Below, in pieces: positions 12,359-63,977 of a DNA stretch of 64,000 bases. Within the stretch, counting starts at the first letter, position 1, and every line of letters starts with the position of its first letter. The translations under genes and the position numbers were made by a program. The stretch spans positions 2,272,001 to 2,336,000 of the forward strand of contig CH464491.1 of NCBI GenBank assembly GCA_000002445.1, read 5' to 3'. The notes under the pieces were generated by a model. The model was not told the DNA's origin and made no database searches. It saw only the letters and a list, made by a program, of their open reading frames with translations. The DNA is from Trypanosoma brucei (Eukaryota).

Positions 12359-12363
<5 letters not shown>

Positions 12364-12393
<30 letters not shown>
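12364..12393. repeat. (TA)15 microsatellite
   Basis: The sequence reads atatatatatatatatatatatatatatat and lies in the intergenic region upstream of the AAA ATPase gene. Confidence 0.95.
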
Positions 12394-12396
<3 letters not shown>

Positions 12397-12667
12397 TAAA
12401 TGGATCGGCTTTCCCGCCTGCAATACGATGTTGTTTCCGTCACATGAGGCTTTCCAACTCTAAAAAGAAAGAAATCCGTTATTTATTTATCCGTTATAAA
12501 ATTTGAGAAAGCTACGTTATTTAAGGTGCGCATGCACACTCCACCCATCTCTTTAGCGCTCGTGTCATTCAATTATATATCTCTTCTTTAATGTGTTTTT
12601 TATCTTCTTTCTTAACTTCTCAATTTTTGCTATTTACTGCTAACCCTCAAAGTGTAGAAGGAGTGAT

Positions 12668-37827: not shown

Positions 37828-38206
37828 TTGCTATATTATTCTTTTTTTTGGTGAGCTCGGCAACCCTCAGGTGTGGCAAAATTATCCAATCTTGCCCTTT
37901 GTGGTGTGTTCTTACAAACTCAAGTACACAAGGTAGTAGTGGCACTAGGGTGCGGATGGGTTGGTTTGGCTGCGATTAGGGGGGAGGATAGCAACTGACG
38001 TTGGGCGCGACTTTTGAAACAACAACTGAGGTAATTTTCCTTTTACAAAACTAACGATAACAACAGTGACAATACGTAAACATACACTTTAGATTTCTGT
38101 TTATTAATAACTAAACATATATCACTCCACGGCGCAAGGTGAGAGTGTATAGCGAACGGGGGAAAGGGTGAAGATAAGGCACGACCCCAATCTTGGGAGA
38201 GTGCTC

Positions 38207-40572: not shown

Positions 40573-41196
40573 ATGAGCGTGGGCAAACCTATCACACGTG
40601 ACTCTTCCAAACAACTCTGGCGGCACATCAAATCAAGTGGGGAAGAGGAGTTGACTTACACGCATAATCCATATGATGACTCCCCAAATCGCCGTAAGGA
40701 ACGGGAAAAATCTCTAAATGTCTGCCGTCACTACGCGGAGGGTCGTTGCAATCGCGGTAGCACTTGCCGTTTCCACCACGAGACGCGGCACAACATCATC
40801 GTAACGCCACACGTCACTCCCAAATTCTCAAGCATTGCCCCCCTCAAGGGATTACCAACATCACCGCTTGGAGCATATTTGAGTTCACCTCCCAACAGAT
40901 CGTGTAATGGTTGCTTGCTTTCGCCTACGCATCACAACAACAGTATGAGTTACAACAGCAGCACGAACAGTTCCATGAAAATATTGAGTGAATCCTCCAG
41001 CACTATTCCTCACCTTCAGCTTCCTGAGAGCTTATCAACTCACTGCCGCTCTTCCACTTATGTTGCGTCAGGTATGAATGGGGAGCAACCGCCCCATGAC
41101 GTTTTGATATTGAGTTCGTCGCTTGGTTCTTTGAATGTTGGCGATCATGTTTCCAGAAATAACGGCGGCTTTTTGCTTACTGCGCAGCAAAGGTAA
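40573..41196 (+). CDS. CCCH (C3H1) zinc-finger protein, 207 aa
   Basis: A single C-x7-C-x5-C-x3-H motif (CRHYAEGRCNRGSTCRFHH) with the aromatic/Gly spacing typical of trypanosomatid ZC3H RNA-binding proteins. The remainder is an S/N/P-rich low-complexity tail. Confidence 0.75.
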   Translation: MSVGKPITRDSSKQLWRHIKSSGEEELTYTHNPYDDSPNRRKEREKSLNVCRHYAEGRCNRGSTCRFHHETRHNIIVTPHVTPKFSSIAPLKGLPTSPLGAYLSSPPNRSCNGCLLSPTHHNNSMSYNSSTNSSMKILSESSSTIPHLQLPESLSTHCRSSTYVASGMNGEQPPHDVLILSSSLGSLNVGDHVSRNNGGFLLTAQQR

Positions 41197-46814: not shown

Positions 46815-47163
46815 CAAAAGCATAAGGAGGTCCACTACAATTATACTGTTGTTCCCAGATATACGGGTGTGCGCCTAAAGGGACACGTGACGTTCAAATT
46901 GGATATCCCTCCCATTGTTGACCGTATCTCACATTATTGGATATGTTGTAATCACTGACGGCTTGCTGTGAACTGCCACAGCTGTACACATGCACACACA
47001 TGTGATTCGGTTTTTCTTCTCCCAATATCCTTCCTTTCATATAATATAGGCAACCACACAATATTGGCACAACACCTGCTATCAAACTACCCTAACCCAA
47101 GTGTCTGTTTGTTTCTTTACGTCACTGGGAGGGTTTTAACAAGAACTAACATTGAGTCTGACT

Positions 47164-48881
47164 ATGTGTGGGGGAGAAGAGAATGGTGGATTGGATCAGG
47201 CACATGTGTCCTACAGTGGCAGTGCGAGTGAGCAAAACATTGCGGAAATGATTGTAGACCCATCAGGTTCCCGTCAGCCCACAGCATTCCAACTCACACT
47301 CGATTGCAATAAGGCAGGAATGGGAAATGTGGATAAGGAACGTGTGGAAGCTATTATACGTAATGTAAGGGAAGGCTCACCTTTTTTATGAATGAGCAGC
47401 GTTTGGCTGAGGGTCGAGAGAAGCAACTGCAAGAGCTGAAGCGGAAATCATCTCTCTTCACTCAGTTGTTGGGTGGTGAACGAAACGCTGCGCAGCGGAA
47501 ACAGTGGGAGCTGAAGGTTTCCAAAATAGAACAGGAGCTTGAGGCTACGCGTCGACTGGGAACTTATATCCATTTAGACATGGACATGTTTTATGCTGCT
47601 GTTGAAATCAAGAAGCATCCGGAGTACGCCGCCATTCCGCTTGCCATAGGCACAATAACGAGGTTGATAACAACAAATTATGTTGCGCGTGGACGTGGTA
47701 TTCGTCAAGGTATGCCAGGTTTCCTTGCTCTAAAAATCTGCCCGAATTTGCTCATTCTGCCTCCTGATTTCGATGCTTACAATGAGGAATCCAATACTGT
47801 GCGCCGTATTGTTGCTGAATACGACCCTAATTATATCAGCTTTGGTTTGGATGACTTTACTCTCGAAGTAAGTGCCTACATAGAGCGTTTTGAGGGAACC
47901 AAAACAGCCGAAGATGTGGCTTCTGAACTGCGTGTGCGTGTATTTGGTGAAACAAAGTTGACAGCAAGTGCTGGTATTGGACCCACTGCAGCACTTGCCA
48001 AGATTGCCAGTAATATTAATAAGCCGAATGGACAACATGATCTTAATCTTCACACCCGAGGGGATGTGATGACATACGTCAGGGATTTGGGTCTACGTTC
48101 TGTGCCTGGTGTTGGGAAGGTTACGGAAGCTCTGTTGAAGGGACTGGGTATCACCACTCTCTCAGATATTTACAATAGGCGTGTTGAACTTTGTTACATT
48201 TTGCACAATAATTTATTTCGCTTTTTGCTTGGAGCTTCCATTGGCATTATGCAATGGCCCGATGCAGCAACGGCAGCCAATACCGAGAATTGTGAGGGGG
48301 CTACTGGAGAGCAACGGAAGGCAATCAGTAGCGAGCGATCCATCACTACTCCACGAACCAAAGAAGGTATGCAGGAAATGCTTGATACCGTATTCAATGG
48401 TGCCTATGAAGAAATGCGGAAGAGTGAGCTAATGTGTAGACGCATTTCGTTAAGAATTAGGTGGGCCTCCTATCGTTATCAACAATACACAAAAAGTTTG
48501 ATACAATATTCAGATGACTCTGCAACCCTTCGCCGCGCAGTGGATGGTTTACTGTTACCGCATGCTGCAAAGTATTCAGAGATTTCACTGTTGGGGGTAC
48601 GTTTTCTTGACCTTATCTCTGCAAAAGACTTTCATATGAAAAGAAAGGGTGGTAACCAACTGTCTATTTCACAATTTATTCGCCCCAAGAAGCCGGGTGA
48701 GGTAACAGCAACCACCGGTATAAAAAGGGAGAGAACTACTGAACCGAAACAGGTTGTTGGAGTGAATCTATCATCAGATGACGAGGATGAGAATGATAGT
48801 GTTGGCTTGGCATCTAGCTCCACTATACTCGTTTCAACTGACAAAGGTACTGTTGAGAGGGAAGTTACCATAATTGAGTGA
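47164..48881 (+). pseudogene. POLK: DNA polymerase kappa-like copy 1 with a -1 frameshift (pseudogene, or a sequencing error in a T-run)
   Basis: The N-terminal ORF (track 47152..47391) ends at a TGA (47389-47391) within cttttttatgaatgag. The paralogous copies read ...ccttttt(g/a)(a/t)t(g/t)aatga(g/a)... in frame, and copy 1 is 1 nt shorter at this point. The downstream ORF 47388..48881 encodes the full catalytic core (LDMDMFYAAVE, SFGLDDFTLEVS). Confidence 0.7.
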
Positions 48882-49596
48882 AATGAGGACATCAGTCAAT
48901 AGAAATTCCCACATTGCCCAATGGCATTCATATACAAATCACCTATACACAAGTACCCATAAACAAAACACATTATACACATGTATTGTTATACAGCTAT
49001 CATATGTTTTCATTTTTTGAAGTTATACTTTATATGGTTTATTACTTACATTGTTTTTTTCTTAAGCATGCTTGTGCTCATGTACAACCAGTGGAGCAAC
49101 TGGCTAATAACTCCTTCATCTTTGTGCGGACACCTTGGTGTATCCTATACTTTCTTTGAGGCCTTCTAATCCAGGTACTTTTTACACACTGTGACGCTAA
49201 TAAGTGTAGTTCTTTCTTTTGATTAATGTCTACTGCGTGCAGTGATGCGAAAAAGTCTGTACTTTATTTGTATGTTTATCTTCGGGTTTGATTTGTTTGG
49301 TTGCTGATGGCAGTGGAAGGCCTCTGCAATTATGTTTGTGTTTTTGTTTCTTTGTGTTGCTGTTTTTCTATATTTTTGGAGTTTGTTTTTTTTCTTCCTG
49401 TTTTTTTGCACTTCTTTTCTTTGCTTTCCTCTTGCAACATATTTTTTTATGTAATTGTATTTTTTTTGTGTGTGTAATGGTGGCGGATGTTGTTTTTGTT
49501 TTAGTAGTTGAAGTTTTTGTTTGTTGTTGGATTGAGAGCGACAACGGTAGTTTGCTGATGGTTTCGTTTATTTACAGCTGCGTCTCTAGTCGTCTG

Positions 49597-50181
49597 ATGT
49601 TTGCTAGTGTGAAGAGGGCTGTTGGGCAATATTCATGTTTTCATGTGATTTGTTCCCCGCGCTTCCACAGTAACTATGTTGTGGGGGTCAACAAGGCGCC
49701 TAGTTGGATCGCGTCCCCGACAGAAAGGCGACGAAAGTTTGGTGAAGAGTGCCTTGCCGAAGGTAAAGAGCGGGATGGCGACATGGATGTAGAGCTTGTT
49801 CCCGTGGACGTGAAAAAGCTTGCTTTGCCCCTGCACCTCACGGACTCGATCCCGCAGGATATCGTCGATAATATCGTTGCGAGAGATAGAACACTTGTTT
49901 TCGCGCCAAACATGAAGATACTAGACCTGCACAGGCGGTTGTCCCGGATGAAGTATCGGATAAGCGTCCAGCCGCTTGGGAAGGTGCTGCACTTCCGATT
50001 CTTTCGGCTGTGTAAATTGTCCAGCGGTATGCCCGGAGATGTTACAGTGGAAACCTTCCGCAGCATCCAGCAGAAACTCTCCGAGTACACAAGATTTTTG
50101 GTGATGGATGAACGTTGGCCACTGGAGTTGTCATTAGAAATTACCCCCATTATTGAGCATCAACGGAAAGCAATGCTTTGA
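49597..50181 (+). CDS. Hypothetical ORF (195 aa from ATG 49597; ORF-track 49288..50181) on a non-array insert between polymerase copies 1 and 2
   Basis: The array spacer sequence is interrupted at 49335, immediately after gcaattatg. A T/G-rich UTR-like tract (49335-49596) follows, then a complex-composition ORF ending at a TGA at 50179-50181, 5 nt before the 100-N gap. No domain recognised. The upstream part of the track ORF (49288-49596) is low-complexity and probably untranslated. Confidence 0.4.
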   Translation: MFASVKRAVGQYSCFHVICSPRFHSNYVVGVNKAPSWIASPTERRRKFGEECLAEGKERDGDMDVELVPVDVKKLALPLHLTDSIPQDIVDNIVARDRTLVFAPNMKILDLHRRLSRMKYRISVQPLGKVLHFRFFRLCKLSSGMPGDVTVETFRSIQQKLSEYTRFLVMDERWPLELSLEITPIIEHQRKAML

Positions 50182-50186
50182 TGCCA

Positions 50187-50286
50187 NNNNNNNNNNNNNN
50201 NNNNNNNNNNNNNNNNNNNNNNNNNNNNNNNNNNNNNNNNNNNNNNNNNNNNNNNNNNNNNNNNNNNNNNNNNNNNNNNNNNNNNN
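50187..50286. other. Assembly gap (100 N)
   Basis: A run of exactly 100 n characters. The sequence resumes inside the array spacer (acatgtattgttatacacc...). Confidence 1.
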
Positions 50287-50991
50287 ACATGTATTGTTAT
50301 ACACCTATCATATGTTTTCATTTTTTGAAGTTATACTTTATATGGTTTATTACTTACATTGTTTTTTTCTTAAGCATGCTTGTGCTCATGTACAACCAGT
50401 GGAGCAACTGGCTAATAACTCCTTCATCTTTGTGCGGACACCTTGGTGTATCCTATACTTTCTTTGAGGCCTTCTAATCCAGGTACTTTTTACACACTGT
50501 GACGCTAATAAGTGTAGTTCTTTCTTTTGATTAATGTCTACTGCGTGCAGTGATGCGAAAAAGTGTGTACTTTATTTGTATGTTTATCTTCGGGTTTGAT
50601 TTGTTTGGTTGCTGATGACAGCGGAAGGTCTCTGCAATTATGAAAACTCATAAGGAGGTCCACTATAATTATACTGTTGTTCCCAGATATACGGGTGTGC
50701 GCCTAAAGGGACACGTGACGTTCAAATTGGATATCCCTCCCATTGTTGACCGTATCTCACATTATTGGATATGTTGTAATCACTGACGGCTTGCTGTGAA
50801 CTGCCACAGCTGTACACATGCACACACATGTGATTCGGTTTTTCTTCTCCTAATATCCTTCCTTTCATATAATATAGGCAACCACACAATATTGGCACAA
50901 CACCTGCTATCAAACTACCCTAACCCAAGTGTCTGTTTGTTTCTTTACGTCACTGGGAGGGTTTTAACAAGAACTAACATTGAGTCTGACT

Positions 50992-52704
50992 ATGTGTGGG
51001 GGAGAAGAGAATGGTGGATTGGATCAGGCACATGTGTCCTACAGTGGCAGTGCGAGTGAGCAAAACATTGCGGAAATGATTGTAGACCCATCAGCTTCCC
51101 GTCAGCCCACAGCATTCCAACTCACACTCGATTGCAATAAGGCAGGAATGGGAAATGTGGATAAGGAGCGTGTCGCTGCAGTGATACATGAGATGTCTGC
51201 GGGATCAGGGTACCTTTGCAATCAGCAGCGTTTATCAAAAAGTCGAGAGAAGCAACTGCAAGAACTCAAGCGGAAATCATCTCTCTTCACTCAGTTGTTG
51301 GGTGGTGAACGAAACGCTGCGCGGCGGACGCAGTGGGAGGTGAAGGTTTCCAAAATAGAACAGGAGCTTGAGGCTACGCGTCGACTGGGAACTTATATCC
51401 ATTTAGACATGGACATGTTTTATGCTGCTGTTGAAATCAAGAAGCATCCGGAGTACGCCAACGTTCCGCTTGCAGTTGGAACTAAAACAATGCTAACAAC
51501 CGCAAATTATGTTGCTAGAGGTTGTGGTGTCCGTCCTGGTATGCCAGGTTATATCGGATTGAAGATTTGCCCGAATTTGCTCATTCTGCCTCCTGATTTC
51601 GATACTTACAATGAGGAATCCAATACTGTGCGCCGTATTGTTGCTGAATACGACCCTAATTACATCAGCTTTGGTTTGGATGAACTGACCCTTGAGGTAA
51701 GTGCCTACATAGAGCGTTTTGAGGGAACCAAAACAGCCGAAGATGTGGCTTCTGAACTGCGTGTGCGTGTATTTGGTGAAACAAAGTTGACAGCAAGTGC
51801 TGGTATTGGACCCACTGCAGCACTTGCCAAGATTGCCAGTAATATTAATAAGCCGAATGGACAACATGATCTTAATCTTCACACCCGAGGGGATGTGATG
51901 ACATACGTCAGGGATTTGGGTCTACGTTCTGTGCCTGGTATTGGGAAGGCTATGGAAGCTCTGTTGAAGGGACTGGGTATCACCACTCTCTCAGATATTT
52001 ACAATAGGCGTGTTGAACTTTGTTATATCTTTACCGAAAAAACATATCGCTTTTTGCTTGGAGCTTCCATTGGCATTATGCAATGGCCCGATGCGTGTAA
52101 TATACCGGGTGGCTCTGTCGATGATGGGACAGGTGTGGGAAGGAAGTCAGTTGGTAGTGAACGTACATTCAAAATATTGCAAAGCAAAGAGGAATTACAG
52201 GAAATTGTTGATTTTATTTTTAATTCTTCGTATGATGAACTAAAGAAACATGAGCTGATGTGTAGACAGGTTTCGTTAAGAATAAGGTGGGCAACCTATC
52301 GATCCCGGCAGTATACTATGAATTTAGCCCAACATTCAGATGACTCTGCAACCCTTCGCCGCGCAGTGGATGGTTTACTGTTACCGCATGCTGCAAAGTA
52401 CTCAGATATGTCGTTACTGGGGATGCGTCTGTTAGACCTTATCTTTGCAAAAGACTTTCATATGAAAAGAAAGGGTGGTAACCAACTGTCTATTTCACAA
52501 TTTATTCGCCCCAAGAAGCCGGGTGAGGTAACAGCAACCACCGGTATAAAAAGGGAGAGGACTACTGAACCGAAACAGGTTGTGGAAATAATAATATCAT
52601 CAGATGACGAGGATGAGAATGATAGTGTTGGCTTGGCATCTAGCTCCACTATACTCGTTTCAACTGGCAAAGGTACTGTTGAGAGGGAAGTTACCATAAT
52701 TTAG
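50992..52704 (+). CDS. POLK: DNA polymerase kappa-like (Y-family/DinB) copy 2, variant A little-finger cassette
   Basis: Y-family motifs are present: motif I LDMDMFYAAVE, motif III SFGLDELTLEVSAY, and HhH/thumb SVPGIGKAMEALLKGLGITTLSDI. Copy-specific cassettes are ANVPLAVGTKTMLTTANYVARGCGVRPGMPGYIGLKI and CNIPGGSVDDGTGVGRKSVGSERTFKILQSKEELQEIVDF... The ORF-track start 50980 is a TTG; the first ATG is at 50992. Confidence 0.9.
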   Translation: MCGGEENGGLDQAHVSYSGSASEQNIAEMIVDPSASRQPTAFQLTLDCNKAGMGNVDKERVAAVIHEMSAGSGYLCNQQRLSKSREKQLQELKRKSSLFTQLLGGERNAARRTQWEVKVSKIEQELEATRRLGTYIHLDMDMFYAAVEIKKHPEYANVPLAVGTKTMLTTANYVARGCGVRPGMPGYIGLKICPNLLILPPDFDTYNEESNTVRRIVAEYDPNYISFGLDELTLEVSAYIERFEGTKTAEDVASELRVRVFGETKLTASAGIGPTAALAKIASNINKPNGQHDLNLHTRGDVMTYVRDLGLRSVPGIGKAMEALLKGLGITTLSDIYNRRVELCYIFTEKTYRFLLGASIGIMQWPDACNIPGGSVDDGTGVGRKSVGSERTFKILQSKEELQEIVDFIFNSSYDELKKHELMCRQVSLRIRWATYRSRQYTMNLAQHSDDSATLRRAVDGLLLPHAAKYSDMSLLGMRLLDLIFAKDFHMKRKGGNQLSISQFIRPKKPGEVTATTGIKRERTTEPKQVVEIIISSDDEDENDSVGLASSSTILVSTGKGTVEREVTII

Positions 52705-53509
52705 TGAAGTGAGGACATCAGTCAATGGAAACGCTCACATTGCCCAATGGCATTCATATACAAATCACCTATACACAAGTACCCATAAACAAAACACATT
52801 ATACACATGTATTGTTATACAGCTATCATATGTTTTCATTTTTTGAAGTTATACTTTATATGGTTTATTACTTACATTGTTTTTTTCTTAAGCATGCTTG
52901 TGCTCATGTACAACCAGTGGAGCAACTGGCTAATAACTCCTTCATCTTTGTGCGGACACCTTGGTGTATCCTATACTTTCTTTGAGGCCTTCTAATCCAG
53001 GTACTTTTTACACACTGTGACGCTAATAAGTGTAGTTCTTTCTTTTGATTAATGTCTACTGCGTGCAGTGATGTGAAAAAGTCTGTACTTTATTTGTATG
53101 TTTATCTTCGGGTTTGATTTGTTTGGTTGCTGATGACAGCGGAAGGCCTCTGCAATTATGAAAACTCATAAGGAGGTCCACTATAATTATACTGTTGTTC
53201 CCAGATATACGGGTGTGCGCCTAAAGGGACACGTGACGTTCAAATTGGATATCCCTCCCATTGTTGACCGTATCTCACATTATTGGATATGTTGTAATCA
53301 CTGACGGCTTGCTGTGAACTGCCACAGCTGTACACATGCACACACATGTGATTCGGTTTTTCTTCTCCCAATATCCTTCCTTTCATATAATATAGGCAAC
53401 CACACAATATTGGCACAACACCTGCTATCAAACTACCCTAACCCAAGTGTCTGTTTGTTTCTTTACGTCATTGGGAGGGTTTTAACAAGAACTAACATTG
53501 AGTCTGACT

Positions 53510-55228
53510 ATGTGTGGGGGAGAAGAGAATGGTGGATTGGATCAGGCACATGTGTCCTACAGTGGCAGTGCGAGTGAGCAAAACATTGCGGAAATGATTG
53601 TAGACCCATCAGCTTCCCGTCAGCCCACAGCATTCCAACTCACACTCGATTGCAATAAGGCAGGAATGGGAAATGTGGATAAGGAACGTGTGGAAGCTAT
53701 TATACGTGGTGCCGGGGAAGGCACACCTTTTTTATTAAATGAACAACGTTTGGTTGAGGGTCGAGAGAAGCAACTGCGGGAACTCAAACGGAAATCATCT
53801 CTCTTCACTCGGTTGTTGGGTGGTGAACGAAACGCTGCGCAGCGGACGCAATGGGAGGTGAAGGTTTCCAAAATAGAACAGGAGCTTGAGGCTACGCGTC
53901 GACTGGGAACTTATATCCATTTAGACATGGACATGTTTTATGCTGCTGTTGAAATCAAGAAGCATCCGGAGTACGCCACCATTCCGCTTGCCATAGGCAC
54001 CATGACGAGGCTACAAACAGCAAATTACATTGCGCGTGGACGTGGTATTCGTCAAGGTATGCCAGGTTTCCTTGCTCTAAAAATCTGCCCGAATTTGCTC
54101 ATTCTGCCTCCTGATGATGATTCTTACAATGAGGAATCCAATACTGTGCGCCGTATTGTTGCTGAATACGACCCTAATTACATAGTTGTTGGTTTGGATG
54201 AACTAGCCCTTGAGGTAAGTGCCTACATAGAGCGTTTTGAGGGAACCAAAACAGCCGAAGATGTGGCTTCTGAACTGCGTGTGCGTGTATTTGGTGAAAC
54301 AAAGTTGACAGCAAGTGCTGGTATTGGACCCACTGCAGCACTTGCCAAGATTGCCAGTAATATTAATAAGCCGAATGGACAACATGATCTTAATCTTCAT
54401 ACCCGAGAGGATGTGATGACATACGTCAGGGATTTGGGTCTACGTTCTGTGCCTGGTGTTGGGAAGGTTACGGAAGCTCTGTTGAAGGGACTGGGTATCA
54501 CCACTCTCTCAGATATTTACAATAGGCGTGTTGAACTTTGTTACATTTTGCACAATAATTTATTTCGCTTTTTGCTTGGAGCTTCCATTGGCATTATGCA
54601 ATGGCCCGATGCAGCAACGGCAGCCAATACCGAGAATTGTGAGGGGGCTACTGGAGAGCAACGGAAGGCAATCAGTAGCGAGCGATCCATCACTACTCCA
54701 CGAACCAAAGAAGGTATGCAGGAAATGGTTGATACCGTATTCAATGGTGCCTATGAAGAAATGCGGAAGAGTGAGATAATGTGTAGACGGATATCCCTCA
54801 CAATTAGATGGGCGTCTTATCGTTATCAACAATACACAAAAAGTTTGATACAACATTCAGATGACTCTGCAACCCTTCGCCGCGCAGTAGACGAGCTCAT
54901 GTTACCGCACGCTGCAAAGTATTCAGAGATGTGTTTGTTGGGGGTACGTCTCTCGGACCTTATCTCTGCAAAAGACTTTCATATGAAAAGAAAGGGTGGT
55001 AACCAACTGTCTATTTCACAATTTATTCGCCCCAAGAAGCCGGGTGAGGTAACAGCAACCACCGGTATAAAAAGGGAGAGGACTACTGAACCGAAACAGG
55101 TTGTGGAAATAATAATATCATCAGATGACGAGGATGAGAATGATAGTGTTGGCTTGGCATCTAGCTCCACTATACTCGTTTCAACTGACAAAGGTACTGT
55201 TGAGAGGGAAGTTACCATAATTGAGTGA
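53510..55228 (+). CDS. POLK: DNA polymerase kappa-like copy 3, variant B cassette set
   Basis: Shares the same conserved blocks as the other copies. Motif III reads VVGLDELALEVS. It carries a unique PPDDDSYNEES block. The thumb/little-finger linker is CEGATGEQRKAISSERSITTPRTKEGMQEMVDTVF, shared with copies 1 and 6. Confidence 0.9.
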   Translation: MCGGEENGGLDQAHVSYSGSASEQNIAEMIVDPSASRQPTAFQLTLDCNKAGMGNVDKERVEAIIRGAGEGTPFLLNEQRLVEGREKQLRELKRKSSLFTRLLGGERNAAQRTQWEVKVSKIEQELEATRRLGTYIHLDMDMFYAAVEIKKHPEYATIPLAIGTMTRLQTANYIARGRGIRQGMPGFLALKICPNLLILPPDDDSYNEESNTVRRIVAEYDPNYIVVGLDELALEVSAYIERFEGTKTAEDVASELRVRVFGETKLTASAGIGPTAALAKIASNINKPNGQHDLNLHTREDVMTYVRDLGLRSVPGVGKVTEALLKGLGITTLSDIYNRRVELCYILHNNLFRFLLGASIGIMQWPDAATAANTENCEGATGEQRKAISSERSITTPRTKEGMQEMVDTVFNGAYEEMRKSEIMCRRISLTIRWASYRYQQYTKSLIQHSDDSATLRRAVDELMLPHAAKYSEMCLLGVRLSDLISAKDFHMKRKGGNQLSISQFIRPKKPGEVTATTGIKRERTTEPKQVVEIIISSDDEDENDSVGLASSSTILVSTDKGTVEREVTIIE

Positions 55229-56030
55229 AATGAGGACATCAGTCAATAGAAATTCCCACATTGCCCAATGGTATTCATATACAAATCACCTATACACAAG
55301 TACCCATAAACAAAACACATTATACACATGTATTGTTATACACCTATCATATGTTTTCATTTTTTGAAGTTATACTTTATATGGTTTATTACTTACATTG
55401 TTTTTTTCTTAAGCATGCTTGTGCTCATGTACAACCAGTGGAGCAACTGGCTAATAACTCCTTCATCTTTGTGCGGACACCTTGGTGTATCCTATACTTT
55501 CTTTGAGGCCTTCTAATCCAGGTACTTTTTACACACTGTGACGCTAATAAGTGTAGTTCTTTCTTTTGATTAATGTCTACTGCGTGCAGTGATGCGAAAA
55601 AGTCTGTACTTTATTTGTATGTTTATCTTCGGGTTTGATTTGTTTGGTTGCTGATGACAGCGGAAGGCCTCTGCAATTATGAAAACTCATAAGGAGGTCC
55701 ACTATAATTATACTGTTGTTCCCAGATATACGGGTGTGCGCCTAAAGGGACACGTGACGTTCAAATTGGATATCCCTCCCATTGTTGACCGTATCTCACA
55801 TTATTGGATATGTTGTAATCACTGACGGCTTGCTGTGAACTGCCACAGCTGTACACATGCACACACATGTGATTCGGTTTTTCTTCTCCCAATATCCTTC
55901 CTTTCATATAATATAGGCAACCACACAATATTGGCACAACACCTGCTATCAAACTACCCTAACCCAAGTGTCTGTTTGTTTCTTTACGTCACTGGGAGGG
56001 TTTTAACAAGAACTAACATTGAGTCTGACT

Positions 56031-57746
56031 ATGTGTGGGGGAGAAGAGAATGGTGGATTGGATCAGGCACATGTGTCCTACAGTGGCAGTGCGAGTGAGC
56101 AAAACATTGCGGAAATGATTGTAGACCCATCAGGTTCCCGTCAGCCCACAGCATTCCAACTCACACTCGATTGCAATAAGGCAGGAATGGGAAATGTGGA
56201 TAAGGAACGTGTGGAAGCTATTATACGTAATGTATCTGAGGGTTCTTCCTTTTTGATGAATGAGCAGCGGAAGGCTGAGGGTCGAGAGAAGCAACTGCAA
56301 GAGCTCAAGCGGAAATCATCTCTCTTCACTCAGTTGTTGGGTGGTGAACGAAACGCTGCGCGGCGGAAACAGTGGGAGCTGAAGGTTTCCAAAATAGAAC
56401 AGGAGCTTGAGGCTACGCGTCGACTGGGAACTTATATCCATTTAGACATGGACATGTTTTATGCTGCTGTTGAAATCAAGAAGCATCCGGAGTACGCCAA
56501 CGTTCCGCTTGCAGTTGGGAGTGTGTCAATGTTGTCTACCGCAAATTATGTTGCACGTGAATGTGGTATTCGCTCCGGTATGCCAGGTTATATCGGATTG
56601 AAGGTCTGCCCGAATTTGCTCATTCTGCCTCCTGATTTCGATGCTTACAATGAAGAATCCAATACTGTGCGCCGTATTGTTGATGAATACGACCCTAATT
56701 TTACCTCTCTCGGTTTGGATGACTTGACCCTCGAGGTAAGTGCCTACATAGAGCGTTTTGAGGGAACCAAAACAGCCGAAGATGTGGCTTCTGAACTGCG
56801 TGTGCGTGTATTTGGTGAAACAAAGTTGACAGCAAGTGCTGGTATTGGACCCACTGCAGCACTTGCCAAGATTGCCAGTAATATTAATAAGCCGAATGGA
56901 CAACATGATCTTAATCTTCATACCCGAGGGGATGTGATGACATACGTCAGGGATTTGGGTCTACGTTCTGTGCCTGGTGTTGGGAAGGTTACGGAAGCTC
57001 TGTTGAAGGGACTGGGTATCACCACTCTCTCAGATATTTACAATAGGCGTGTTGAACTTTGTTACATTTTGCACAATAATTTATTTCGCTTTTTGCTTGG
57101 AGCTTCCATTGGCATTATGCAATGGCCCGATGCAGCAACGGCAGCCAATACCGAGAATTGTGAGGGGGCTACTGGAGGGCAACGGAAGGCAATCAGTAGC
57201 GAGCGATCTTTTTATGTGTTACATAGCAAAGAGCAGTTGCATGAAATGATTTACAGTATTTTTGAAGAGGCCTATGAAGAAATGCGACAGAATGAGATGT
57301 TGTGTCGTCAGATCTCCTTGCTTGTGCGTTGGTCGTCTTATCGTTATCAACAATACACAAAAAGTTTGATACAATATTCAGATGACTCTGCAACCCTTCG
57401 CCGCGCAGTGGATGGTTTACTGTTACCGCACGCTGCAAAGTATTCAGAGATGTGTTTGTTGGGGGTACGTTTTCTTGACCTTATCTCTGCAAAAGACTTT
57501 CATATGAAAAGAAAGGGTGGTAACCAACTGTCTATTTCACAATTTATTCGCCCCAAGAAGCCGGGTGAGGTAACAGCAACCACCGGTATAAAAAGGGAGA
57601 GGACTACTGAACCGAAACAGGTTGTGGAAATAATAATATCATCAGACGACGAGGATGAGAATGATAGTGTTGGCTTGGCATCTAGCTCCACTATACTCGT
57701 TTCAACTGACAAAGGTACTGTTGAGAGGGAAGTTACCATAATTTAG
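56031..57746 (+). CDS. POLK: DNA polymerase kappa-like copy 4, variant C linker
   Basis: Motif III reads SLGLDDLTLEVS, a D-D version. The palm cassette is ANVPLAVGSVSMLSTANYVARECGIRSGMPGYIGLKV. The linker ...SERSFYVLHSKEQLHEMIYSIFEEAYEEMRQNEMLCRQISLLVRW is unique to this copy. Confidence 0.9.
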   Translation: MCGGEENGGLDQAHVSYSGSASEQNIAEMIVDPSGSRQPTAFQLTLDCNKAGMGNVDKERVEAIIRNVSEGSSFLMNEQRKAEGREKQLQELKRKSSLFTQLLGGERNAARRKQWELKVSKIEQELEATRRLGTYIHLDMDMFYAAVEIKKHPEYANVPLAVGSVSMLSTANYVARECGIRSGMPGYIGLKVCPNLLILPPDFDAYNEESNTVRRIVDEYDPNFTSLGLDDLTLEVSAYIERFEGTKTAEDVASELRVRVFGETKLTASAGIGPTAALAKIASNINKPNGQHDLNLHTRGDVMTYVRDLGLRSVPGVGKVTEALLKGLGITTLSDIYNRRVELCYILHNNLFRFLLGASIGIMQWPDAATAANTENCEGATGGQRKAISSERSFYVLHSKEQLHEMIYSIFEEAYEEMRQNEMLCRQISLLVRWSSYRYQQYTKSLIQYSDDSATLRRAVDGLLLPHAAKYSEMCLLGVRFLDLISAKDFHMKRKGGNQLSISQFIRPKKPGEVTATTGIKRERTTEPKQVVEIIISSDDEDENDSVGLASSSTILVSTDKGTVEREVTII

Positions 57747-58551
57747 TGAAATGAGGACATCAGTCAATAGAAATTCCCACATTGCCCAATGGCATTCATA
57801 TACAAATCACCTATACACAAGTACCCATAAACAAAACACATTATACACATGTATTGTTATACAGCTATCATATGTTTTCATTTTTTGAAGTTATACTTTA
57901 TATGGTTTATTACTTACATTGTTTTTTTCTTAAGCATGCTTGTGCTCATGTACAACCAGTGGAGCAACTGGCTAATAACTCCTTCATCTTTGTGCGGACA
58001 CCTTGGTGTATCCTATACTTTCTTTGAGGCCTTCTAATCCAGGTACTTTTTACACACTGTGACGCTAATAAGTGTAGTTCTTTCTTTTGATTAATGTCTA
58101 CTGCGTGCGGTGATGCGAAAAAGTCTGTACTTTATTTGTATGTTTATCTTCGGGTTTGATTTGTTTGGTTGCTGATGACAGTGGAAGGTCTCTGCAATTA
58201 TGAAAACTCATAAGGAGGTCCACTATAATTATACTGTTGTTCCCAGATATACGGGTGTGCGCCTAAAGGGACAGGTGACGTTCAAATTGGATATCCCTCC
58301 CATTGTTGACCGTATCTCACATTATTGGATATGTTGTAATCACTGACGGCTTGCTGTGAACTGCCACAGCTGTACACATGCACACACATGTGATTCGGTT
58401 TTTCTTCTCCCAATATCCTTCCTTTCATATAATATAGGCAACCACACAATATTGGCACAACACCTGCTATCAAACTACCCTAACCCAAGTGTCTGTTTGT
58501 TTCTTTACGTCACTGGGAGGGTTTTAACAAGAACTAACATTGAGTCTGACT

Positions 58552-60267
58552 ATGTGTGGGGGAGAAGAGAATGGTGGATTGGATCAGGCACATGTGTCCT
58601 ACAGTGGCAGTGCGAGTGAGCAAAACATTGCGGAAATGATTGTAGGCCCATCAGGTTCCCGTCAGCCCACAGCATTCCAACTCACACTCGATTGCAATAA
58701 GGCAGGAATGGGAAATGTGGATAAGGAACGTGTGGAAGCTATTATACGTAATGTATCTGAGGGTTCTTCCTTTTTGATGAATGAGCAGCGGAAGGCTGAG
58801 GGTCGAGAGAAGCAACTGCAAGAACTCAAGCGGAAATCATCTCTCTTCACTCAGTTGTTGGGTGGTGAACGAAACGCTGCGCAGCGGAAACAGTGGGAGC
58901 TGAAGGTTTCCAAAATAGAACAGGAGCTTGAGGCTACGCGTCGACTGGGAACTTATATCCATTTAGACATGGACATGTTTTATGCTGCTGTTGAAATCAA
59001 GAAGCATCCGGAGTACGCCGCCATTCCACTTGCAGTTGGGAGTGTGTCAATGTTGTCTACCGCAAATTATGTTGCACGTGAATGTGGTATTCGCTCCGGT
59101 ATGCCAGGTTATATCGGATTGAAGGTCTGCCCGAATTTGCTCATTCTGCCTCCTGATTTCGATGCTTACAATGAGGAATCCAATACTGTGCGCCGTATTG
59201 TTGCTGAATACGACCCTAATTTTACCTCTCTCGGTTTGGATGAACTGACCCTTGAGGTAAGTGCCTACATAGAGCGCTTTGAGGGAACCAAAACAGCCGA
59301 AGATGTGGCTTCTGAACTGCGTGTGCGTGTATTTGGTGAAACAAAGTTGACAGCAAGTGCTGGTATTGGACCCACTGCAGCACTTGCCAAGATTGCCAGT
59401 AATATTAATAAGCCGAATGGACAACATGATCTTAATCTTCATACCCGAGAGGATGTGATGACATACGTCAGGGATTTGGGTCTACGTTCTGTGCCTGGTA
59501 TTGGGAAGGTTACGGAAGCTCTGTTGAAGGGACTGGGTATCACCACTCTCTCAGATATTTACAATAGGCGTGTTGAACTTTGTTATATTTTTACCGAAAA
59601 AACATATTGTTTTTTGCTTGGAGCTTCCATTGGCATTATGCAATGGCCCGATATGTGCAGCATACTTGGTGCCTCCATCGATGATGGGACAGGTGTGGGA
59701 AGGAAGTCAGTTGGGTGTGAACGTACATTCAAAACATTTCAAAACAAAGAAGAATTGCAGGAAATGGTTGATTTCTTAGTCGACTACTCATATGATGAAC
59801 TAAAGAAACATGAGCTGATGTGTAGACAGGTTTCGTTAAAAATTCGATGGAATTCCTACCGTCATCAACAATACACAAAGAATTTGACTCAATATTCAGA
59901 TGACTCTGCAACCCTTCGCCGCGCAGTAGACGAGCTCATGTTACCGCACGCTGCAAAGTATTCAGAGATGCGGCTGCTGGGGGTACGTTTTCTTGACCTT
60001 ATCTTTGCAAAAGACTTTCATATGAAAAAAAAGGGTGGTAACCAACTGTCTATTTCACAATTTATTCGCCCCAAGAAGCCGGGTGAGGTAACAGCAACCA
60101 CCGGTATAAAAAGGGAGAGGACTACTGAACCGAAACAGGTTGTGGAAATAATAATATCATCAGATGACGAGGATGAGAATGATAGTGTTGGCTTGGCATC
60201 TAGCTCCACTGTACTCGTTTCAACTGACAAAGGTACTGTTGAGAGGGAAGTTACCATAATTGAGTGA
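58552..60267 (+). CDS. POLK: DNA polymerase kappa-like copy 5, variant A-prime linker
   Basis: Motif III reads SLGLDELTLEVS. The palm cassette is as in copy 4. The linker MCSILGASIDDGTGVGRKSVGCERTFKTFQNKEELQEMVDFLVDYSYDELKKHELMCRQVSLKIRW is related to copy 2 but distinct. Confidence 0.9.
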   Translation: MCGGEENGGLDQAHVSYSGSASEQNIAEMIVGPSGSRQPTAFQLTLDCNKAGMGNVDKERVEAIIRNVSEGSSFLMNEQRKAEGREKQLQELKRKSSLFTQLLGGERNAAQRKQWELKVSKIEQELEATRRLGTYIHLDMDMFYAAVEIKKHPEYAAIPLAVGSVSMLSTANYVARECGIRSGMPGYIGLKVCPNLLILPPDFDAYNEESNTVRRIVAEYDPNFTSLGLDELTLEVSAYIERFEGTKTAEDVASELRVRVFGETKLTASAGIGPTAALAKIASNINKPNGQHDLNLHTREDVMTYVRDLGLRSVPGIGKVTEALLKGLGITTLSDIYNRRVELCYIFTEKTYCFLLGASIGIMQWPDMCSILGASIDDGTGVGRKSVGCERTFKTFQNKEELQEMVDFLVDYSYDELKKHELMCRQVSLKIRWNSYRHQQYTKNLTQYSDDSATLRRAVDELMLPHAAKYSEMRLLGVRFLDLIFAKDFHMKKKGGNQLSISQFIRPKKPGEVTATTGIKRERTTEPKQVVEIIISSDDEDENDSVGLASSSTVLVSTDKGTVEREVTIIE

Positions 60268-60969
60268 AATGAGGACATCAGTCAATAGAAATTCCCTTTA
60301 TTCTAGCGGCATATTTATAGATATTTATTTCGGTTTTCCCATTCGGCAGAGAGAAATACAACATGTATTAAGTATTGGGGAGCAACTGGCTAATAACTCC
60401 TTCATCTTTGTGCGGACACCTTGGTGTATCCTATACTTTCTTTGAGGCCTTCTAATCCAGGTACTTTTTACACACTGTGACGCTAATAAGTGTAGTTCTT
60501 TCTTTTGATTAATGTCTACTGCGTGCAGTGATGCGAAAAAGTGTGTACTTTATTTGTATGTTTATCTTCGGGTTTGATTTGTTTGGTTGCTGATGACAGC
60601 GGAAGGCCTCTGCAATTATGAAAACTCATAAGGAGGTCCACTATAATTATACTGTTGTTCCCAGATATACGGGTGTGCGCCTAAAGGGACAGGTGACGTT
60701 CAAATTGGATATCCCTCCCATTGTTGACCGTATCTCACATTATTGGATATGTTGTAATCACTGACGGCTTGCTGTGAACTGCCACAGCTGTACACATGCA
60801 CACACATGTGATTCGGTTTTTCTTCTCCCAATATCCTTCCTTTCATATAATATAGGCAACCACACAATATTGGCACAACACCTGCTATCAAACTACCCTA
60901 ACCCAAGTGTCTGTTTGTTTCTTTACGTCATTGGGAGGGTTTTAACAAGAACTAACATTGAGTCTGACT

Positions 60970-62685
60970 ATGTGTGGGGGAGAAGAGAATGGTGGATTGG
61001 ATCAGGCACATGTGTCCTACAGTGGCAGTGCGAGTGAGCAAAACATTGCGGAAATGATTGTAGACCCATCAGGTTCCCGTCAGCCCACAGCATTCCAACT
61101 CACACTCGATTGCAATAAGGCAGGAATGGGAAATGTGGATAAGGAACGTGTGGAAGCTATTATACGTAATGTATCTGAGGGTTCTTCCTTTTTGATGAAT
61201 GAGCAGCGGAAAGCTGAGGGTCGAGAGAAGCAACTGCAAGAGCTGAAGCGGAAATCATCTCTCTTCACTCGGTTGTTGGGTGGTGAACGAAACGCTGCGC
61301 AGCGGAAACAGTGGGAGCTGAAGGTTTCCAAAATAGAACAGGAGCTTGAGGCTACGCGTCGACTGGGAACTTATATCCATTTAGACATGGACATGTTTTA
61401 TGCTGCTGTTGAAATCAAGAAGCATCCGGAGTACGCCGCCATTCCGCTTGCCATAGGCACAATAACGAGGTTGATAACAACAAATTATGTTGCGCGTGGA
61501 CGTGGTATTCGTCAAGGTATGCCAGGTTTCCTTGCTCTAAAAATCTGCCCGAATTTGCTCATTCTGCCTCCTGATTTCGATGCTTACAACGAAGAATCCA
61601 ATACTGTGCGCCGTATTGTTGCTGAATACGACCCTAATTATATCAGCTTTGGTTTGGATGACTTTACTCTCGAAGTAAGTGCCTACATAGAGCGTTTTGA
61701 GGGAACCAAAACAGCCGAAGATGTGGCTTCTGAACTGCGTGTGCGTGTATTTGGTGAAACAAAGCTGACAGCAAGTGCTGGTATTGGACCCACTGCAGCA
61801 CTTGCCAAGATTGCCAGTAATATTAATAAGCCGAATGGACAACATGATCTTAATCTTCATACCCGAGAGGATGTGATGACATACGTCAGGGATTTGGGTC
61901 TACGTTCTGTGCCTGGTGTTGGGAAGGTTACGGAAGCTCTGTTGAAGGGACTGGGTATCACCACTCTCTCAGATATTTACAATAGGCGTGTTGAACTTTG
62001 TTACATTTTGCACAATAATTTATTTCGCTTTTTGCTTGGAGCTTCCATTGGCATTATGCAATGGCCCGATGCAGCAACGGCAGCCAATACCGAGAATTGT
62101 GAGGGGGCTACTGGAGAGCAACGGAAGGCAATCAGTAGCGAGCGATCCATCACTACTCCACGAACCAAAGAAGGTATGCAGGAAATGCTTGATACCGTAT
62201 TCAATGGTGCCTATGAAGAAATGCGGAAGAGTGAGATAATGTGTAGACGGATATCCCTCACAATTAGATGGGCCTCTTATCGTTATCAACAATACACAAA
62301 AAGTTTGATACAACATTCAGATGACTCTGCAACCCTTCGCCGCGCAGTGGATGGTTTACTGTTACCGCACGCTGCAAAGTATTCAGAGATGTGTTTGTTG
62401 GGGGTACGTCTCTCGGACCTTATCTCTGCAAAAGACTTTCATATGAAAAGAAAGGGTGGTAACCAACTGTCTATTTCACAATTTATTCGCCCCAAGAAGC
62501 CGGGTGAGGTAACAGCAACCACCGGTATAAAAAGGGAGAGGACTACTGAACCGAAACAGGTTGTGGAAATAATAATATCATCAGACGACGAGGATGAGAA
62601 TGATAGTGTTGGCTTGGCATCTAGCTCCACTATACTCGTTTCAACTGGCAAAGGTACTGTTGAGAGGGAAGTTACCATAATTTAG
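60970..62685 (+). CDS. POLK: DNA polymerase kappa-like copy 6, variant B
   Basis: Nearly identical to copy 1's downstream ORF (AAIPLAIGTITRLITTNYVARGRGIRQGMPGFLALKI; SFGLDDFTLEVS) but intact, with no frameshift. It ends VTII followed by a TAG. Confidence 0.9.
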   Translation: MCGGEENGGLDQAHVSYSGSASEQNIAEMIVDPSGSRQPTAFQLTLDCNKAGMGNVDKERVEAIIRNVSEGSSFLMNEQRKAEGREKQLQELKRKSSLFTRLLGGERNAAQRKQWELKVSKIEQELEATRRLGTYIHLDMDMFYAAVEIKKHPEYAAIPLAIGTITRLITTNYVARGRGIRQGMPGFLALKICPNLLILPPDFDAYNEESNTVRRIVAEYDPNYISFGLDDFTLEVSAYIERFEGTKTAEDVASELRVRVFGETKLTASAGIGPTAALAKIASNINKPNGQHDLNLHTREDVMTYVRDLGLRSVPGVGKVTEALLKGLGITTLSDIYNRRVELCYILHNNLFRFLLGASIGIMQWPDAATAANTENCEGATGEQRKAISSERSITTPRTKEGMQEMLDTVFNGAYEEMRKSEIMCRRISLTIRWASYRYQQYTKSLIQHSDDSATLRRAVDGLLLPHAAKYSEMCLLGVRLSDLISAKDFHMKRKGGNQLSISQFIRPKKPGEVTATTGIKRERTTEPKQVVEIIISSDDEDENDSVGLASSSTILVSTGKGTVEREVTII

Positions 62686-63490
62686 TGAAATGAGGGCATC
62701 AGTCAATAGAAATTCCCACATTGCCCAATGGCATTCATATACAAATCACCTATACACAAGTACCCATAAACAAAACACATTATACACATGTATTGTTATA
62801 CACCTATCATATGTTTTCATTTTTTGAAGTTATACTTTATATGGTTTATTACTTACATTGTTTTTTTCTTAAGCATGCTTGTGCTCATGTACAACCAGTG
62901 GAGCAACTGGCTAATAACTCCTTCATCTTTGTGCGGACACCTTGGTGTATCCTATACTTTCTTTGAGGCCTTCTAATCCAGGTACTTTTTACACACTGTG
63001 ACGCTAATAAGTGTAGTTCTTTCTTTTGATTAATGTCTACTGCGTGCAGTGATGCGAAAAAGTGTGTACTTTATTTGTATGTTTATCTTCGGGTTTGATT
63101 TGTTTGGTTGCTGATGACAGTGGAAGGTCTCTGCAATTATGAAAACTCATAAGGAGGTCCACTATAATTATACTGTTGTTCCCAGATATACGGGTGTGCG
63201 CCTAAAGGGACACGTGACGTTCAAATTGGATATCCCTCCCATTGTTGACCGTATCTCACATTATTGGATATGTTGTAATCACTGACGGCTTGCTGTGAAC
63301 TGCCACAGCTGTACACATGCACACACATGTGATTCGGTTTTTCTTCTCCTAATATCCTTCCTTTCATATAATATAGGCAACCACACAATATTGGCACAAC
63401 ACCTGCTATCAAACTACCCTAACCCAAGTGTCTGTTTGTTTCTTTACGTCACTGGGAGGGTTTTAACAAGAACTAACATTGAGTCTGACT

Positions 63491-63977
63491 ATGTGTGGGG
63501 GAGAAGAGAATGGTGGATTGGATCAGGCACATGTGTCCTACAGTGGCAGTGCGAGTGAGCAAAACATTGCGGAAATGATTGTAGACCCATCAGCTTCCCG
63601 TCAGCCCACAGCATTCCAACTCACACTCGATTGCAATAAGGCAGGAATGGGAAATGTGGATAAGGAACGTGTGGAAGCTATTATACGTAATGTATCTGAG
63701 GGTTCTTCCTTTTTGATGAATGAGCAGCGGAAAGCTGAGGGTCGAGAGAAGCAACTGCAAGAGCTGAAGCGGAAATCATCTCTCTTCACTCAGTTGTTGG
63801 ATGGTGAACGAAACGCTGCGCAGCGGAAACAGTGGGAGCTGAAGGTTTCCAAAATAGAACAGGAGCTTGAGGCTACGCGTCGACTGNGAACTTATATCCA
63901 TTTAGACATGGACATGTTTTATGCTGCTGTTGANATCAAGAAGCATCCGGAGTACGCCGCCATTCCGCTTGCCATAG
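63491..63977 (+). CDS. POLK: DNA polymerase kappa-like copy 7, 5' partial (truncated by Ns and the window end)
   Basis: Same N-terminal sequence as copies 4-6 (MCGGEENGG...NVSEGSSFLMNEQRKAEGREKQ...LDMDMFYAAV). Two single-n ambiguities occur at 63887 and 63934, then a run of N from 63978. Confidence 0.8.

Follow-up and report, generated by a model that had tools for sequence, protein, structure and literature searches.

The reference genome of Trypanosoma brucei brucei TREU927 carries on chromosome 11 a tandem array of genes for DNA polymerase kappa (Pol kappa, POLK), part of which lies in the DNA analysed here, a window of 64,000 nucleotides (nt) from contig CH464491.1 (assembly GCA_000002445.1, positions 2,272,001 to 2,336,000, forward strand; coordinates below are those of the window). 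Six full-length Pol kappa genes stand in the window and a seventh, of which 487 nt are present, is cut by the window end, in agreement with a sequence-only reading of the same DNA that had counted six or seven copies. The copies are very probably old paralogues in which most of the coding sequence (the backbone) has been homogenised recently, whereas divergent islands have remained old and have occasionally been exchanged between copies as cassettes.

Among the six full coding sequences, 319 of 1709 aligned sites are polymorphic, and these sites are strongly clustered: counted per 30 nt, they have a dispersion index of 7.05, whereas randomly placed sites give 0.88 and never more than 1.46 in 2000 trials. 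They delimit six variable blocks, A (amino acids (aa) 61-85), B (156-193), C (194-235), D (346-354), E (367-450), and F (451-495), in which the copies differ at a maximum of 60, 42, 21, 78, 56, and 16% of residues, respectively, and at up to 51% of bases. The remaining 321 codons differ by at most 2.1% of bases, and the intergenic DNA by 0.7-1.6%. The identical body with discrete divergent blocks that the sequence-only reading had described is therefore real, and the sequences that it quoted are all present.

The two kinds of sequence differ in age. Between types in blocks A, B, and E, synonymous divergence (dS) runs from 0.5 to more than 1.5 and non-synonymous divergence (dN) from 0.2 to 0.6; in the backbone, dS is 0-0.05. 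Similarly, when copies 6 and 2 encode the same amino acid, their codons differ synonymously at 39 of 75 positions in the blocks versus 7 of 310 in the backbone. For blocks A, B, D, and E taken together, the proportion of synonymous differences (pS) is 0.32-0.70 and its non-synonymous counterpart stands to it in a ratio (pN/pS) of 0.35-0.59 (Fisher p from 3e-3 to 2e-13), and not near 1, the value that the sequence-only reading had named as speaking against a functional role. Synonymous difference in the blocks, at 0.5-0.7, is near saturation and pN/pS, at about 0.4, is significantly below 1, which marks the blocks as old and constrained; a dS close to zero marks the backbone as recently homogenised by recombination. 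The ages of the cassettes rest on these within-array dS values together with protein identities. Over blocks D and E, two types in the array, termed alpha and beta, share 52% of residues, about as many as the beta type shares with Trypanosoma congolense (54%); in block A, copy 2 is less similar to its neighbours (42-44%) than copy 6 is to T. congolense (60%). Backbone identity is 94-100% within the array versus 73-83% to T. congolense, a pattern of concerted evolution that is limited to the backbone and does not extend to the islands.

The copies share their blocks as a patchwork, as the sequence-only reading had claimed. With block types defined at no more than 4% nt divergence, copies 4, 5, and 6 have one type of block A, and copies 1, 2, and 3 have one each. 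For blocks B and C the types are those of copies 1 and 6, of copies 4 and 5, of copy 2, and of copy 3; for block D, those of copies 1, 3, 4, and 6, of copy 2, and of copy 5; and for block E, those of copies 1, 3, and 6, of copy 2, of copy 4, and of copy 5. The groupings conflict from block to block: copy 5 has its block A in common with copies 4 and 6 and its blocks B and C with copy 4, and in D and E it is nearest copy 2. Copy 4 is indeed mixed (A, B, and C as in copy 5, D alpha, E of a type termed gamma) and copy 3 is unique in places (its own A, B, and C). The single cassette set once ascribed to copies 1 and 6 holds for blocks B to E and fails in block A, and that ascribed to copies 2 and 5 reduces to membership of one D/E family in which the two have diverged (dN 0.14, dS 0.8), copy 5 going with copy 4 in A to C. 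Compensated frameshifts were considered as the origin of the alpha and beta peptides of block E and were ruled out: the codon alignment contains ordinary substitutions, many of them synonymous.

The breakpoint and gene-conversion analysis that the sequence-only reading had proposed gave a strong signature of recombination. A statistic like that of the pairwise homoplasy index (PHI) was reached by none of 1000 permutations, the Hudson-Kaplan minimum number of recombination events (Rmin) is 34, and shared tracts are significant by a GENECONV-style test in all 15 copy pairs. One of these, visible in the codon alignment, is a micro-tract of copy-2 sequence, eight sites long, inside copy 1. Shuffling of modules by gene conversion, which that reading had proposed, thus stands as far as recombination is concerned and is corrected in its polarity: the blocks are old, and it is their surroundings that were recently homogenised.

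The best-supported scenario for this pattern starts from paralogues that diverged long ago and came to stand in one array. Gene conversion and unequal crossing-over between the repeats would have made the spacers and some 320 codons near-identical, namely those of the N-terminus, motif I, most of the palm, the helix-hairpin-helix (HhH) thumb, and the C-terminal tail. Six islands would have escaped, corresponding to the N-clasp, the fingers, motif III, the end of the thumb, the linker with the first half of the PAD domain, and the rest of the PAD, each being kept in three or four old versions and evolving under purifying selection. Now and then, conversion tracts that start and end in the identical backbone would carry an entire island, or only some bases of it, between copies, which would explain the conflicting combinations of blocks. 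We infer that selection, and not a mere lack of homology, keeps the islands apart.

The mosaicism of this array is not new in itself, since its copy number, recombination, and gene conversion have already been published. In one study (Jackson 2007), it appears as array 112, "DNA polymerase kappa" (Tb11.01.0080 and neighbours), with 10 copies and whole-gene values of 0.2129 for Ks and 0.0892 for Ka; the orthology tree was rejected and the concerted-evolution tree was not, and Table S2 lists five GENECONV/SISCAN conversion tracts (p down to 5e-21), four of which have voucher reads (PMC1855330). Similarly, a second study (Jackson et al. 2010) gives 10 copies for T. b. brucei and seven for T. b. 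gambiense, with four isoforms shared, and reports for the Pol kappa array PHI p<0.001, nine breakpoints by likelihood-ratio test (LRT), and at least 10 by the genetic algorithm for recombination detection (GARD), in a section entitled "subspecies-specific sequence mosaics" (PMC2854126). The available parts of Jackson 2007/2010, which treat array 112 at the same locus of the same genome, give whole-gene statistics and hold no map of blocks onto polymerase domains, no contrast between old islands and young backbone, and no warning about copy 1. New relative to published work are the age of the islands against the young backbone, the mapping to domains, the persistence of cassettes across subspecies, and the suspicion that falls on copy 1. 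More generally, the second study describes 31 of 35 variable T. brucei arrays as recombinant mosaics, 27 of them with subspecies-specific copies (PMC2854126). Other mosaic arrays of this species (ISG65, GRESAG4, amino-acid and hexose transporters) resemble the present one in being recombinant; however, most of them encode surface or transport proteins, whereas the Pol kappa array encodes a DNA repair enzyme whose islands include active-site positions.

The sequence-only reading had placed the genes among Y-family polymerases of the Pol kappa/DinB type, and domain matches, human relatives, and predicted fold all bear this out; a role in lesion bypass is predicted. In copies 2 and 6, Pfam detects IMS (PF00817, 1e-41), IMS_HHH (PF11798), and IMS_C (PF11799, 3e-11 to 5e-10), so that the catalytic core, the HhH thumb motif, and the little-finger/PAD domain are all present. 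The closest proteins are T. brucei Pol kappa and then T. congolense at 58%, and the best solved relatives are human Pol kappa (E ~1e-72). In a Foldseek comparison with the PDB, the AlphaFold model of copy 6 matched 6CST, 4U6P, and 2OH2 (E 1e-38 to 1e-35, target-normalised template-modelling (TM) scores 0.84-0.85). The N-clasp is also represented: residues 42-100 align with human 17-75 and retain the equivalents of Lys25 and Phe49, long helices are predicted at residues 58-128 (predicted local distance difference test, pLDDT, at least ~85), and the top fold matches are N-clasp-containing complexes of human Pol kappa. At the positions of the catalytic carboxylate triad (human Asp107, Asp198, and Glu199), Asp139 and Asp230 are invariant across copies, and residue 231 is either Glu or Asp, which keeps its acidic character. 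No UBZ zinc finger, as in the vertebrate-type regulatory tail, was found by Pfam at E<=0.001, although the catalytic family is not defined by such fingers.

With human Pol kappa (2OH2, 3IN5, 6CST), the T. brucei copies thus share the order N-clasp, palm, fingers, thumb, and PAD, a predicted fold with a TM score of 0.85, and the equivalents of Asp107, Asp198, Tyr112, Lys25, and Phe49; they differ in being ~570 aa long, multi-copy, and without Pfam-detected UBZ zinc fingers. In cells, RNA interference (RNAi) against POLK causes sensitivity to methyl methanesulfonate (MMS); the authors of this RNAi screen considered POLK important for MMS tolerance and called the reason for the POLK expansion unknown (PMC5542689). 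A 2025 review lists T. brucei POLK by "homology" only. The AlphaFold models of copy 6 (alpha) and copy 2 (beta) are equally confident; residues 368-383 in the linker (pLDDT <50) and the tail past about residue 513 are predicted to be disordered. We also observed that the homogenised tail of copies 2-6 holds, at residues ~497-505 and 531-545, the segments QLSISQFI and VEIIISSDDEDEND, the latter replaced by VGVNLSS in copy 1. The pattern QxxLxxF is conserved at the QLSISQFI position across a 40-sequence alignment. We take QLSISQFI to resemble a PCNA-interacting motif and VEIIISSDDEDEND a SUMO-interacting motif.

The blocks were placed in the enzyme by alignment with human Pol kappa, using the domain limits and contact residues given for it (PMC2686167; Table 1). 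In the human protein, the N-clasp comprises aa 25-74 and the fingers aa 110-170, and the thumb includes aa 339-401 (PMC2686167). On this alignment, the blocks lie where the enzyme grips the template, the nascent base pair, and the duplex; they fall in DNA- and substrate-contacting modules and not in surface loops without such a role, the other sign that the sequence-only reading had named as adverse. Its reading of the linker block as a functional module needs qualification: in the predicted models of block E, residues ~368-383 form a loop of low confidence, followed by a strand, a helix, and two further PAD strands that the models give with high confidence.

Several differences touch positions that are otherwise nearly fixed, and at three of them some T. 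brucei copies depart from the human enzyme. At residue 167, which corresponds to human Met135 and where Met is near-universal, copies 2, 4, and 5 carry Met, and copies 1, 3, and 6 carry Arg; Met135 stacks on the template base, and the M135A change causes a 36-fold loss of activity (PMC2686167). The catalytic Glu199 has residue 231 as its counterpart: copies 2, 3, and 5 retain Glu, as do all 39 other Pol kappa sequences aligned, and copies 1, 4, and 6 have Asp. At residue 474, which corresponds to human Arg507 and precedes the LxGVR motif of the PAD, copy 5 alone has the Arg that is invariant in the 39 other sequences, and the other window copies have Ser or Cys (the copy 2 codon lies at about 52411-52413). 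At the 73 positions that are at least 90% conserved in those 39 sequences, copy 2 deviates four times, copy 5 five times, copy 4 eight times, and copies 1, 3, and 6 each 11-12 times. In the first PAD strand, RKS is changed to RKA in copies 1, 3, 4, and 6, and ERTF to ERSI in copies 1, 3, and 6.

It is possible, with prospects that we consider nearly even, that the isoforms differ in catalytic efficiency or in lesion range. Functional specialisation of this kind is favoured because of the active-site substitutions, the purifying selection, and the conservation of cassettes across subspecies. A bolder version, that the alpha cassettes (copies 1, 3, 6, and partly 4) represent a neofunctionalised Pol kappa and that selection has kept both kinds of module since about the split between T. 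brucei and T. congolense, appears rather unlikely. On this bolder version, a single array would encode enzymes with different lesion ranges or fidelities. The block map translates into a concrete set of constructs, namely cassette swaps and the point changes M167R and E231D. Engineered little-finger/linker chimeras of Dbh and Dpo4 (4F4W, 4F4Y, 4NLG) provide a parallel in that whole modules are set in the backbone of another Y-family enzyme; a little-finger swap study is cited as reference 18 in PMC6695781. However, these are archaeal constructs made in the laboratory, and a functional difference between the T. brucei mosaics is suggested by analogy only.

Several points weigh against the view that the copies are old, selectively maintained, and functionally distinct. 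The alpha and beta types fold equally well in silico. A divergence of more than 30% of nucleotides, by blocking heteroduplex formation, could alone explain why the islands persist, and Asp in place of the catalytic Glu, or Arg in place of Met135, could indicate weakened and not specialised enzymes. The block dS values are saturated, which makes ages and dN/dS rough, and a fast-evolving alpha lineage may mimic an old origin. In addition, the TREU927 assembly of the array has two gaps and one suspect copy.

The strongest rival is that the islands are a neutral by-product, the array serving for dosage: concerted evolution would act on all stretches similar enough to recombine, and its least constrained segments would have drifted past the homology threshold and frozen, leaving isoforms that are interchangeable. 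The sharp block borders and the homogenisation of the backbone at synonymous sites and in non-coding DNA fit this proposal, as they point to recombination and not to selection at the protein level, and so does the low confidence of the loop predicted for the linker in block E. However, the fingers domain and motif III, which Y-family polymerases normally conserve particularly well, are islands here, and the changes hit positions invariant in the family; moreover, the islands are under purifying selection and the cassettes are intact across subspecies. We therefore regard a neutral origin as plausible but on the whole doubtful.

Ongoing positive (diversifying) selection that creates new variation in the blocks is improbable. 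It was inferred in a 2020 paper on seven T. b. gambiense copies, in which model M2 was better than M1 (p=0.001) and at least five sites were detected by fixed effects likelihood (FEL), and in which specialisation was raised as a possibility (PMC7576959). In the window, block D might appear to agree, with dN of 0.59-0.68 versus dS of 0.23; however, this excess concerns nine codons and is not significant (Fisher p=0.62), and block D was rejected as a case of positive selection. Similarly, the pooled pN/pS argues that most of the difference is old and constrained, and single-tree codon models are unreliable on alignments this recombinant. The codeml and FEL evidence of PMC7576959 itself rests on a heavily recombinant alignment, and its conclusion may need a partition-wise re-test. 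More generally, our results suggest that earlier whole-gene dN/dS and positive-selection analyses be redone by partition.

The cassettes were also found in other trypanosomes. In T. b. gambiense DAL972, the array is gap-free and has seven copies (g1-g7) between the CCCH gene and a gene of 554 aa. Copy 2 is 98.8% identical to g2 at the nt level, copy 3 is 99.1% identical to g6, and copy 6 is 97.9% identical to g1, and the E block of copy 4 is 99.2% identical to that of g3, g4, and g5. Window cassettes recur in T. b. gambiense at 98-100% nt identity and are found in Trypanosoma equiperdum proteins as well. DAL972 has no close counterpart (<=80%) of the B cassette shared by copies 4 and 5 or of the copy 5 E cassette, both of which are present in T. 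equiperdum RHW68308. Since the cassettes are 98-100% identical between subspecies, the shuffling is slow and evolutionary and does not reflect an active process of diversification.

It is very improbable that the mosaic arose from collapsed or misjoined repeats in the assembly. Some features of the window do have the look of such an artefact: there are a gap of 100 N and further Ns in the array; copy 1 is a hybrid of first and last copy that has both array borders and adjoins a duplicated fragment of the downstream gene; and the 2025 review gives TREU927 POLK only by Tb11.v5.* identifiers, versus a Tb11.01.* identifier for the array in the 2010 table. They fit an error in the placement of copy 1 and in copy number, but not in the mosaic. 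Because the gap-free DAL972 array repeats the cassettes, and several isoforms in their entirety, at 98-100% identity, and T. equiperdum has the cassettes too, the mosaic is not an assembly artefact, contrary to what the sequence-only reading had allowed for; individual reads also vouch for four of the five recombinant tracts (PMC1855330).

Programmed diversification, in which silent donors are copied into an expressed acceptor as in variant surface glycoprotein (VSG) mosaics or chicken immunoglobulin genes, has nothing but its cassette-like look in its favour and was rejected as almost certainly wrong, since the copies are equivalent, with five of six full-length copies being intact open reading frames (ORFs) on one strand with the same flanks and copy 1 having a single frameshift, there is no donor archive or dedicated acceptor, and the cassettes are nearly unchanged (98-100%) between subspecies. 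As to ectopic donors, no divergent T. brucei Pol kappa beyond the array copies was present among the matches listed, the next best being T. congolense at 58%.

Copy 1 requires separate treatment. As a correction to the sequence-only reading, one base is missing in a run of T, and the resulting frameshift leads to a premature stop (Table 1). Its blocks B and C match g1, the first copy of DAL972 (95.6-97.6%), and its blocks E and F and C-terminus match g7, the last (98-99.3%). Similarly, the DNA on its 5' side is colinear with DAL972 at the left array border, and that on its 3' side at the right border, where the start of the next gene is included. Because copy 1 is a hybrid of first and last copy, has both array borders, and adjoins the 100-N gap, its placement is suspect: either the assembly collapsed copies or merged haplotypes here, or unequal crossing-over has generated a true haplotype with one copy. 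Copy counts, and knock-outs designed from the TREU927 reference, have to reckon with this doubtful copy and with the duplicated fragment that follows it.

This fragment is the 5' part of a divergent Y-family paralogue, here called kappa3. When the ORF between copies 1 and 2 was itself used as a query, no homologue was found; it was identified through the syntenic locus and protein of Trypanosoma cruzi: it is 54% identical to the third IMS gene of T. cruzi over aa 91-224 (tblastn, E=6e-39). Clustering at 90% groups it with the full-length T. brucei proteins CBH17854 and EAN79822, and it is colinear with the g7-kappa3 junction of DAL972 (98.6%). TREU927 thus has a truncated kappa3 (EAN79811) in the window and a full-length one (EAN79822) after the last Pol kappa copy. 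Across Trypanosoma, the gene is retained immediately downstream of the Pol kappa genes (14168-15811 in our locus L001, that of T. cruzi, and 10001-11665 in L003), under the annotation "UmuC domain-containing" or hypothetical. Its alignment with Pol kappa is confined to the part from motif III onward, at 25% identity, and the Asp of that motif is replaced by Leu, so kappa3 is unlikely to be a polymerase.

Two further species indicate that, in Trypanosoma generally, tandem Pol kappa genes are partly homogenised. The T. cruzi pair (TcCLB.503755.10 and.30) shares 578 nt at 99.8% (L001 8445-9022 versus 12077-12654), which cover the fingers and palm, and its N-termini and PADs are barely alignable. 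In Trypanosoma theileri, P0008 and P0016 are partly homogenised in the same manner at the protein level. The T. cruzi pair resembles the T. brucei array in syntenic position and in partial homogenisation, but has two copies versus ~10, and its islands are the gene ends and not internal blocks. One member of this pair is reportedly found at the kinetoplast (Rajao et al. 2009).

The layout of the array is given in Table 1. Seven head-to-tail units lie on the + strand, as a 30-nt anchor recurs seven times from 47152 onward, and the ATG codons of copies 1-7 are at 47164, 50992, 53510, 56031, 58552, 60970, and 63491. The units are spaced at 2418-2521 nt, except between copies 1 and 2 (3828 nt). Copies 2-6 are intact (570-572 aa) and match EAN79812-EAN79816 exactly; copy 7 is nearest copy 6, with three differences in 484 nt. 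Three TREU927 copies lie outside the window (EAN79818, EAN79820, EAN79821), and these distal copies are known as proteins only.

Table 1. Features of the Pol kappa array in the window. Human residue numbers refer to Pol kappa; c, copy.
Feature	Description	Position	Strand	Remark
Pol kappa array	part in window	46821..63977	+	repeat-unit homology from 331 nt 5' of copy 1; array runs past window end
Copy 1	EAN79810, annotated 497 aa from 47388; frameshifted hybrid	47164..48881	+	stop at 47389-47391
kappa3 5' fragment	EAN79811, 234 aa; divergent Y-family paralogue	49477..50181	+	unique DNA 49335-50186, 852 nt
Assembly gap	100 N	50187..50286	.	sequence resumes at position 101 of standard intergenic unit
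Copy 2	EAN79812; beta type, most canonical	50992..52704	+	exact protein match
Copy 3	EAN79813; alpha type, own A, B, C variants	53510..55228	+	exact protein match
Copy 4	EAN79814; mixed: A of c5/c6, B/C of c5, D alpha, E gamma	56031..57746	+	
Copy 5	EAN79815; A of c4/c6, B/C of c4, D/E beta-prime	58552..60267	+	
Copy 5-specific 3'UTR segment	~85 nt in place of ~185 nt after every other copy	60293..60377	+	
Copy 6	EAN79816; alpha type	60970..62685	+	exact protein match
Copy 7	first 487 nt only	63491..63977	+	Ns at 63887, 63934; N run from 63978
Block A, copy 2	N-clasp	51172..51246	+	aligns with human 36-60, around Phe49
Block A, other copies		47344-47417, 53690-53764, 56211-56285, 58732-58806, 61150-61224	+	
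Block B, copy 2	fingers	51457..51570	+	aligns with human 124-161
Block B, other copies		47628-47741, 53975-54088, 56496-56609, 59017-59130, 61435-61548	+	
Block C, copy 2	fingers end and palm motif III; scattered differences	51571..51696	+	aligns with human 162-203
Block C, other copies		47742-47867, 54089-54214, 56610-56735, 59131-59256, 61549-61674	+	
Block D, copy 2	last thumb helix	52027..52053	+	aligns with human ~386-394
Block D, other copies		48198-48224, 54545-54571, 57066-57092, 59587-59613, 62005-62031	+	
Block E, copy 2 (aa 367-449)	thumb-PAD linker and first PAD half	52090..52338	+	human ~404-478
Block E, other copies		48261-48512, 54608-54859, 57129-57380, 59650-59898, 62068-62319	+	
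Block F, copy 2 (aa 450-494)	second PAD half; scattered differences	52339..52473	+	

The array lies inside one polycistronic transcription unit, between the gene for a CCCH zinc-finger protein and kappa3, the degenerate third Y-family paralogue. All sizeable ORFs of the window are on the + strand, as is expected for a trypanosomatid polycistronic unit. Upstream, the + strand carries (477-41196) genes for a carnitine acyltransferase-like protein, a katanin p60-type AAA ATPase, an NADPH-cytochrome P450 reductase-like protein, and a HAD hydrolase, as well as two amastin genes (35664-36563, 38168-39577) and the CCCH zinc-finger gene (40573-41196). The gene order DUF7762-HAD-CCCH-Pol kappa is common to the window and T. 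cruzi.

Finally, both the intergenic alignment and direct reading revealed that the ~85-nt segment in the 3' untranslated region (3'UTR) of copy 5 is unrelated to the ~185 nt that follow the other copies, a difference absent from the list of the sequence-only reading. Levels of mRNA in trypanosomes are set largely by 3'UTRs, and the copy 5 isoform might therefore be regulated differently through its own segment.

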